Source of the DNA: Escherichia coli
Lineage (GTDB): Bacteria > Pseudomonadota > Gammaproteobacteria > Enterobacterales > Enterobacteriaceae
Direction: 5' to 3' (one strand)
Assembly (NCBI RefSeq): GCF_003334785.1
Contig: NZ_QOWV01000029.1
Length of the DNA: 25,956 nt
The first letter of the stretch is position 1. Each line of letters starts with the position of its first letter. The translations under genes were made by a program, and so were the position numbers. Of the stretch, positions 10,713-10,989 are shown piece after piece. Under the pieces are notes generated by a model. It saw only the letters and a program-made list of their open reading frames with translations, was not told where the DNA came from and did not search any database.

Positions 10713-10989
10713 CAGTGGCAGACCCGCTCAATTTCAAGCGCGCGGAGCAGGTGGCCCCATTCGCTGACTTTCATAGCGGGGATACGCACCCGCTTCTGCT
10801 CACTGCAGCGTCTGGCGATATGGCCGCTCATCGCCAGGACGTCCGGGTTAATCTCATCCTGTGCCAGCTCCTGACGTCTGAAGCGGGTATGGCGGTGCAG
10901 GGGTTTATTCTCCCGCAGGCACTCTTCACGCAGACGCTTTACATACTCGGCGGTTGCCAGGATAACGTGCCGGCACGGCCTGGGTAACC
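10713..10989 (-). pseudogene. Gene remnant, about 92 codons open with no start codon, ends ...RALEIERVCH
   Basis: Protein-like minus-strand frame opens immediately after a stop and contains no ATG/GTG/TTG until codon 54; abuts the impCAB promoter. Identity unknown. Confidence 0.3.

Follow-up and report, generated by a model that had tools for sequence, protein, structure and literature searches.

In a 25,956-nt stretch of Escherichia coli DNA (contig NZ_QOWV01000029.1; the window, meaning this whole stretch), the space between the nuclease gene rpn (9733-10647, minus strand) and the start of impC (11181, plus strand) holds a protein-like frame that begins without a start codon. This raises the question of what the frame is and how it came to lie there. 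Our analysis indicates that the region is very likely a 5′-truncated, probably silent remnant of ydfB, a gene of the leading region of IncI-complex plasmids, left behind by a single deletion of ~12.8 kb.

Two mirror-image open frames lie on nearly the same bases between rpn and impC. The minus-strand frame (10996..10715) comprises 94 sense codons, ends at a TGA (10714..10712) and is preceded in frame by a TAA (10999..10997). Its first 55 codons contain no ATG, GTG or TTG, the earliest being the ATG at 10831. On the plus strand, the mirror frame (10712-10987) spans 92 codons directly after a TAA (10709-10711) and has a GTG (10715) as its second codon. A preliminary description of the region, which named no strand, had reported a start-less, protein-like frame of 92 codons at 10713-10989 and had read it as a gene that lost its 5′ end in a rearrangement at the impCAB boundary. 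These coordinates and this codon count fit the plus-strand frame better, which turned out to be non-coding (see below). A 5′ end cut on the impCAB side, however, makes sense only for the minus-strand frame, which is the real one (see below). The frame as such was thus correctly recognised, but with 94 codons instead of 92, of which 83 are derived from a gene; likewise, the lack of a canonical start codon is true of the first 55 minus-strand codons but not of the plus-strand frame with its GTG.

A homology search for the parental gene and the breakpoint identified ydfB and placed the junction at 10963-10965. The ydfB product has 88 amino acids (aa) in R64, pRWS532 and CP056802, each with its own start codon and Shine-Dalgarno sequence. 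In R64 the counterpart is the hypothetical protein WP_001247862.1 (historically ydfB), encoded between a 144-aa open reading frame (ORF; ydgA) and rpn, and the intact gene order in IncI-complex plasmids is Frpo2 - ydgA - ydfB - rpn. The gene-derived part of the minus-strand frame (10963..10715) evidently corresponds to codons 6-88 of ydfB, all 83 of them intact, and runs into the native stop TGA (10712..10714, minus strand), the same stop as in R64. Codons 1-5 are swapped for unrelated sequence. The other 11 codons (10996..10964; NTWLPRPCRHV) come from upstream of the DUF1281 gene and are a read-through of intergenic DNA that stays open by chance up to the in-frame TAA. Accordingly, the R64 protein reads V/M-RPSIIFATAEYVKRL...ERVCH and the window translation ...CRHV-ILATAEYVKRL...ERVCH. 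The frame is not a chance ORF, because its 83 codons show no amino-acid difference from the ydfB variant of the IncK2/Z plasmid CP056802 (locus L007; 0 nonsynonymous differences, compared to 1 against R64). Homology extends across the family core (VRIPAM...WGxxLRxLE), and the position is also that of ydfB, in a leading region close to oriT and in line with the neighbouring leading genes, with the order nikA/nikB - Frpo1 - rpn - remnant oriented as in R64. The family N-terminus (M-x-x-S-I-I with a canonical start and a Shine-Dalgarno sequence) is missing, as nucleotides 1-13 have been replaced. Full-length homologues continue past the breakpoint, and the replacing sequence could be traced to another locus. 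The earlier reading of a 5′-truncated gene at the impCAB boundary therefore holds for the minus-strand frame, although the truncation itself is small (5 codons) and sits at the edge of a large (12.8-kb) deletion.

Both parental flanks could be assigned directly. Left of the breakpoint the window consists of ydfB/rpn DNA, and right of it of the impC-DUF1281 intergenic region: positions 10500-10965 are 99.4% identical to R64 ydfB/rpn, and positions 10956-11500 are 97.6% identical to the impC side of the divergent impC-DUF1281 intergenic region of R64. The IncI-gamma/K1 plasmid pRWS532 gave the same picture (98.9% and 99.1%, respectively). In the intact plasmids the two flank points are separated by 12,793 bp (pRWS532) or 12,795 bp (R64), which sets the extent of the deletion. 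According to the R64 and pRWS532 annotations, the missing segment contains the DUF1281 gene, a DNA methylase gene, DUF1380 genes, an antirestriction gene (KlcA-like), ssb, a DUF905 gene, a parB-like gene, psiB, psiA, ardA and ydgA. It also carries two of the three Frpo single-strand promoter repeats (Frpo2 and Frpo3), which were mapped with the ColIb-P9 Frpo sequences from PMC11541004 (supplementary file 4) as queries. In R64, Frpo1 lies upstream of a DUF4942 gene, Frpo2 directly upstream of ydgA-ydfB-rpn (locus L004, 32279-32604) and the third repeat upstream of ssb; Frpo2 is also found upstream of ydgA-ydfB in pRWS532, and is absent from the window. The only Frpo copy in the window, compared to three in R64, is of the Frpo1 type (8703..9028; 97.6% identity to ColIb-P9 Frpo1) and is situated between the DUF4942 gene and a helix-turn-helix gene. 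In this mapping, no Frpo repeat was found at the end-points of the deletion.

We conclude that the middle of the impC-DUF1281 intergenic region was fused to ydfB nucleotide 14-17 in one deletion of ~12.8 kb. The junction (10956..10965) is an imperfect microhomology of 10 nt with 8 of 10 positions identical; the parent on the ydfB side (CP056802) reads GCCAGGATAA, those on the impC side GCCCGGTTAA. CP056802 holds the ydfB variant MRPSIILATAEY, with the sequence ...TTGCCAGGATAA up to the breakpoint and TTGATGG beyond it (...TTGCCAGGATAA followed by TTGATGGTCTCAT), and is an exact match to the window up to 10965. Because CP056802 matches the window to this position while all impC-side parents read GCCCGGTTAA followed by CGTGCC, the event is one crossover within the TAA that both sides share (10963-10965). 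In PLSDB, none of the impC-side parents matches exactly through 10956-10965, which is consistent with a crossover in the TAA. Nucleotides 1-13 of ydfB (ATG AGA CCA TCA A) are certainly lost and nucleotides 17-267 certainly kept. Against R64 and pRWS532, the junction had looked like an alternating mosaic of parental bases, as from patchy heteroduplex repair; this idea was dropped once the exact left-hand variant was found in CP056802.

The two parental sites share no homology beyond ~10 nt, and no insertion sequence (IS) element, resistance module or longer repeat was found at the junction. As a single strand, the impC-DUF1281 intergenic region of R64 is predicted to form a long hairpin (folding free energy -80 kcal/mol, z = -6.5; L004 20383-20409 pairing with 20521-20547), and its stem contains the right-hand breakpoint. 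From a crossover at a TAA in an 8/10 match, together with a right breakpoint in a hairpin stem, we infer that the deletion arose by illegitimate, microhomology-mediated recombination or by slippage. The hairpin is ~165 nt long (L004 20383-20547), its z value refers to the transferred-strand sense, and the arm retained in the window is 10966-10982. BLAST showed no similarity of the hairpin to Frpo1 or Frpo2, and it could be a fourth, unrelated single-stranded DNA element. Part of the impC-DUF1281 intergenic region has a counterpart upstream of the DUF1281 gene of IncF pO157, with ~90% conservation.

A megablast search of positions 10600-11170 against PLSDB returned only three plasmids, AP022179, CP069544 and MW646305, that are colinear over the whole query, whereas thousands of IncI-type plasmids match the window only up to 10965. 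The junction was present in 3 of 72,556 PLSDB plasmids and in 2 of 5,426 complete E. coli genomes, compared to ~1,980 PLSDB records with an intact ydfB, so it is rare and derived. In all three colinear plasmids, RefSeq annotates the remnant, through the NCBI Prokaryotic Genome Annotation Pipeline (PGAP), as a coding sequence (CDS) of 83 aa, WP_106421909.1, with an ATC start at 10963..10961. A homologue of this length was not found in independent lineages; an 83-aa version was seen only in the three plasmids with this junction.

Is the remnant still expressed? The loss of the start codon and the Shine-Dalgarno sequence is plain from the comparison with intact genes. There, the Shine-Dalgarno/anti-Shine-Dalgarno duplex has a predicted energy of -6.4 to -8.8 kcal/mol at normal spacing. 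In the remnant, we obtained -2.5 kcal/mol for the ATC at 10963, which is badly spaced, -1.7 kcal/mol for the CTG at 10960 and -2.8 to -4.2 kcal/mol for the internal ATG and GTG codons, compared to -10.3 kcal/mol for rpn just downstream. The annotated ATC is therefore in frame but has no ribosome-binding site. A short palindrome (10966-10977) and a hairpin (10978-10993) lie directly upstream of it. The upstream promoter context is gone as well, since Frpo2 and ydgA are deleted, and a consensus search predicted no minus-strand sigma-70-like site in 10600-11250. The sole promoter-like site in this interval is that of impC (TTGACT-18-TAGAAT, 11111-11140), followed by a LexA-box-like CTGT-N8-ACAG (11142-11157; read against the known consensus). 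These signals suggest that the remnant is probably no longer translated at a meaningful level and that it is most probably a deletion scar and a silent pseudogene. The 5′-truncation put forward in the preliminary description also stands, because the ATC has no Shine-Dalgarno sequence and no independent 83-aa homologue was found.

Several points weigh against the view of a silent scar from a microhomology-mediated deletion. The frame is undamaged over its 83 codons, free of stops and frameshifts and identical in amino-acid sequence to its closest parent, so that continued use of it, with low-level translation, is conceivable. The protein sequence is identical in the three junction plasmids, and the NCBI pipeline calls it as a CDS. 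The promoter scan was a simple consensus search, which leaves room for weak or read-through transcription. The mechanism of the deletion, finally, is read from the anatomy of the junction alone, where a 3-nt crossover in an 8/10 match is weak evidence for any particular pathway. The intact frame, its identical protein sequence in the carriers and the CDS call also favour the alternative that the remnant is still a working gene, either as a YdfB with an altered N-terminus made from the ATC at 10963 or the CTG at 10960, or as a 39-aa C-terminal fragment made from the ATG at 10831. We consider this unlikely. The candidate starts, at -1.7 to -4.2 kcal/mol, all fall short of the intact genes, two hairpins stand directly upstream, Frpo2, ydgA and any predicted minus-strand promoter are missing, and part of the N-terminal 'SII' motif that the family conserves is gone. 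Moreover, the carriers differ by only ~0.5% over 2 kb; the intact frame therefore points to a young event and not to selection, which so few differences give no power to detect. The ATC-start CDS WP_106421909.1 would be more fittingly annotated as a pseudogene, a truncated ydfB.

The substitution pattern between intact copies decides which of the two mirror frames is coding. A diverged ydfB copy (L009) shares 82% amino-acid identity with R64 ydfB, and 29 of the 43 nucleotide differences between them are at third codon positions. The ratio of nonsynonymous to synonymous differences (pN/pS) comes to 0.18 when read in the frame of ydfB, against 1.43 in the register of the mirror frame. Because of the low pN/pS and of homologues in the leading regions of other plasmids, intact ydfB is a real gene; in addition, two distinct upstream sequences (an R64 type and a pRWS532/L009 type) each provide it with a start codon and a Shine-Dalgarno sequence. 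That the plus-strand ORF (10715-10987; GTG start, 90 aa) is the real gene is, by contrast, extremely improbable. It is open for 92 codons with a GTG near its 5′ end, but substitutions between the diverged copies fall mostly at its first codon positions, both R64 and L009 have a stop in this frame, and all database homologues and annotations are on the opposite strand. We rejected it as a gene on the basis of these substitutions and stops.

Alternatively, impC and ydfB could be neighbours by ancestry or through misassembly, with the 12.8-kb block of R64-type plasmids as an insertion. This idea has nothing positive in its favour, was raised only since the direction of an indel needs an argument, and can practically be dismissed. 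The usual form of the gene encodes 88 aa and has a start codon and a Shine-Dalgarno sequence, and distant homologues conserve its N-terminus. IncI1, IncI-gamma/K and IncK2/Z plasmids all have the block, and IncF plasmids have part of it. The junction cuts a coding sequence and a hairpin stem, and an identical junction in three independently assembled complete plasmids excludes misassembly.

An exhaustive phmmer search returned YdfB relatives of ~80-88 aa with 35-58% identity, which share the N-terminal S-I-I and the C-terminal VRIPAM...WGxxLRxLE pattern. Two of them were traced to their contigs, and both lie in a leading region: one in an F-like arrangement (psiB-psiA-...-ydfB-like-N6 methyltransferase-antirestriction-SLT-traM), the other next to a NikA-like/relaxase pair. 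Distant homologues (35-45% identity; L010-L014, from F-like and other MOBP contigs) are found, again in leading regions, directly upstream of an orphan N6 DNA methyltransferase gene and not of rpn. The family has no Pfam entry; YdfB itself has no Pfam match, and distant members gave weak HU-CCDC81 matches in a few cases only. A search against NCBIfam gave only a meaningless 11-bit match, and searches of PHROGs, PADLOC and PDB sequence profiles gave nothing. The AlphaFold2 model of YdfB is confident and consists of three helices (predicted local distance difference test score, pLDDT, 85.6), for which Foldseek found no match in the PDB at E < 1. In the literature, 'ydfB' was found only in passing mentions in three papers.

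Two further disruptions of ydfB were observed that are independent of the one in the window. In one, an IS21-family element is inserted within the gene (L016/L017, 1339-4249); in the other, the 3′ part of the gene is fused to unrelated DNA next to traX (L018, 4001-4303).

The three plasmids that carry the junction differ in type. pERB12a3 (71 kb, IncI-gamma/K1) carries blaCTX-M-15 and a full tra/pil/trb/nik set. In the PLSDB gene table, which is itself incomplete, ssb, psiA/B and ardA are not annotated anywhere in it, and a literature search gave no result for this plasmid. The remaining two carriers, both IncFIA mosaics, contain no more than a fragment of the IncI backbone, set among IS elements. 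In these, the IncI trbABC genes beside nikB are replaced by IS100, IS1203 and astA (EAST1) (CP069544/L008, 1-2522, left of nikB), and the IncI segment is therefore a captured, decaying fragment.

In the window, directly downstream of the remnant lies rpn (Rpn/YhgA-like nuclease; 9733..10647, minus strand), which is intact and has its own strong Shine-Dalgarno sequence. On the other side, the retained half of the divergent impC-DUF1281 intergenic region (10966..11180, plus strand) leads to the first impCAB gene, impC (DinI-like; 11181..11429, plus strand), which now faces the remnant. In pERB12a3 (L003, 3421-3831), the annotated impC CDS starts 162 nt further upstream than in the closest relatives of the window and so spans the promoter and LexA-box region; this probably stems from a 1-nt indel in the alignment. 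On the far side of rpn, a 73-aa ORF (9512-9733, minus strand) overlaps the rpn stop codon by one base and is a second copy of the Rpn C-terminal domain (54% identity over 59 residues, E = 5e-15). It recalls the small C-terminal Rpn proteins that are reported to act as intragenic antitoxins.

A bolder proposal would be that the ydfB 5′ end and the hairpin upstream of the DUF1281 gene are preferred recombination points, possibly through processing in the single strand that is transferred or by the neighbouring Rpn nuclease. Clean loss of the entire anti-defence/SOS-inhibition island (ardA, psiAB, ssb, Frpo2/3) would then be recurrent and possibly selected, and would leave IncK-type plasmids, pERB12a3 among them, whose conjugative transfer does without these genes. 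We regard this as speculative and quite improbable. The remnant is an ordinary deletion scar, and nothing in it goes against current understanding. Its practical value lies mostly in the annotation of WP_106421909.1. The scar also marks a natural IncK-type plasmid backbone that lacks ardA, psiA/psiB, ssb, related leading-region genes and two of the three single-strand promoters, and pERB12a3 could serve as a natural control for the contribution of the leading-region island to plasmid establishment.

Among known systems, the closest is ydfB of R64 and ColIb-P9 (IncI1), with which the remnant has residues 6-88, the stop codon and the downstream neighbour rpn in common. It differs in the absence of codons 1-5, the start, the Shine-Dalgarno sequence and the upstream ydgA and Frpo2, and its upstream neighbour is the impC promoter region instead. 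The intact parent ydgA-ydfB-rpn resembles the Frpo/ssi-driven early leading-region genes (ardA and psiB of ColIb-P9; F Frpo; PMC11541004) in lying directly downstream of Frpo2, in the orientation expected for transcription from the transferred strand, and ydfB itself may be expressed early. With no Frpo/ssi repeat upstream of it and Frpo2 missing from the window, the remnant is not classed as Frpo-driven. Leading regions of IncI plasmids have been rearranged at this gene before: a deletion from ydfB to rfsF has been reported (PMC8004404), and in this deletion, as in the IS21-family insertions in ydfB, the gene is again an end-point or target, as in the window. In contrast to those rearrangements, the event in the window appears to be a clean microhomology deletion that ran in the opposite direction, towards impCAB, and removed ardA-psiAB-ssb.
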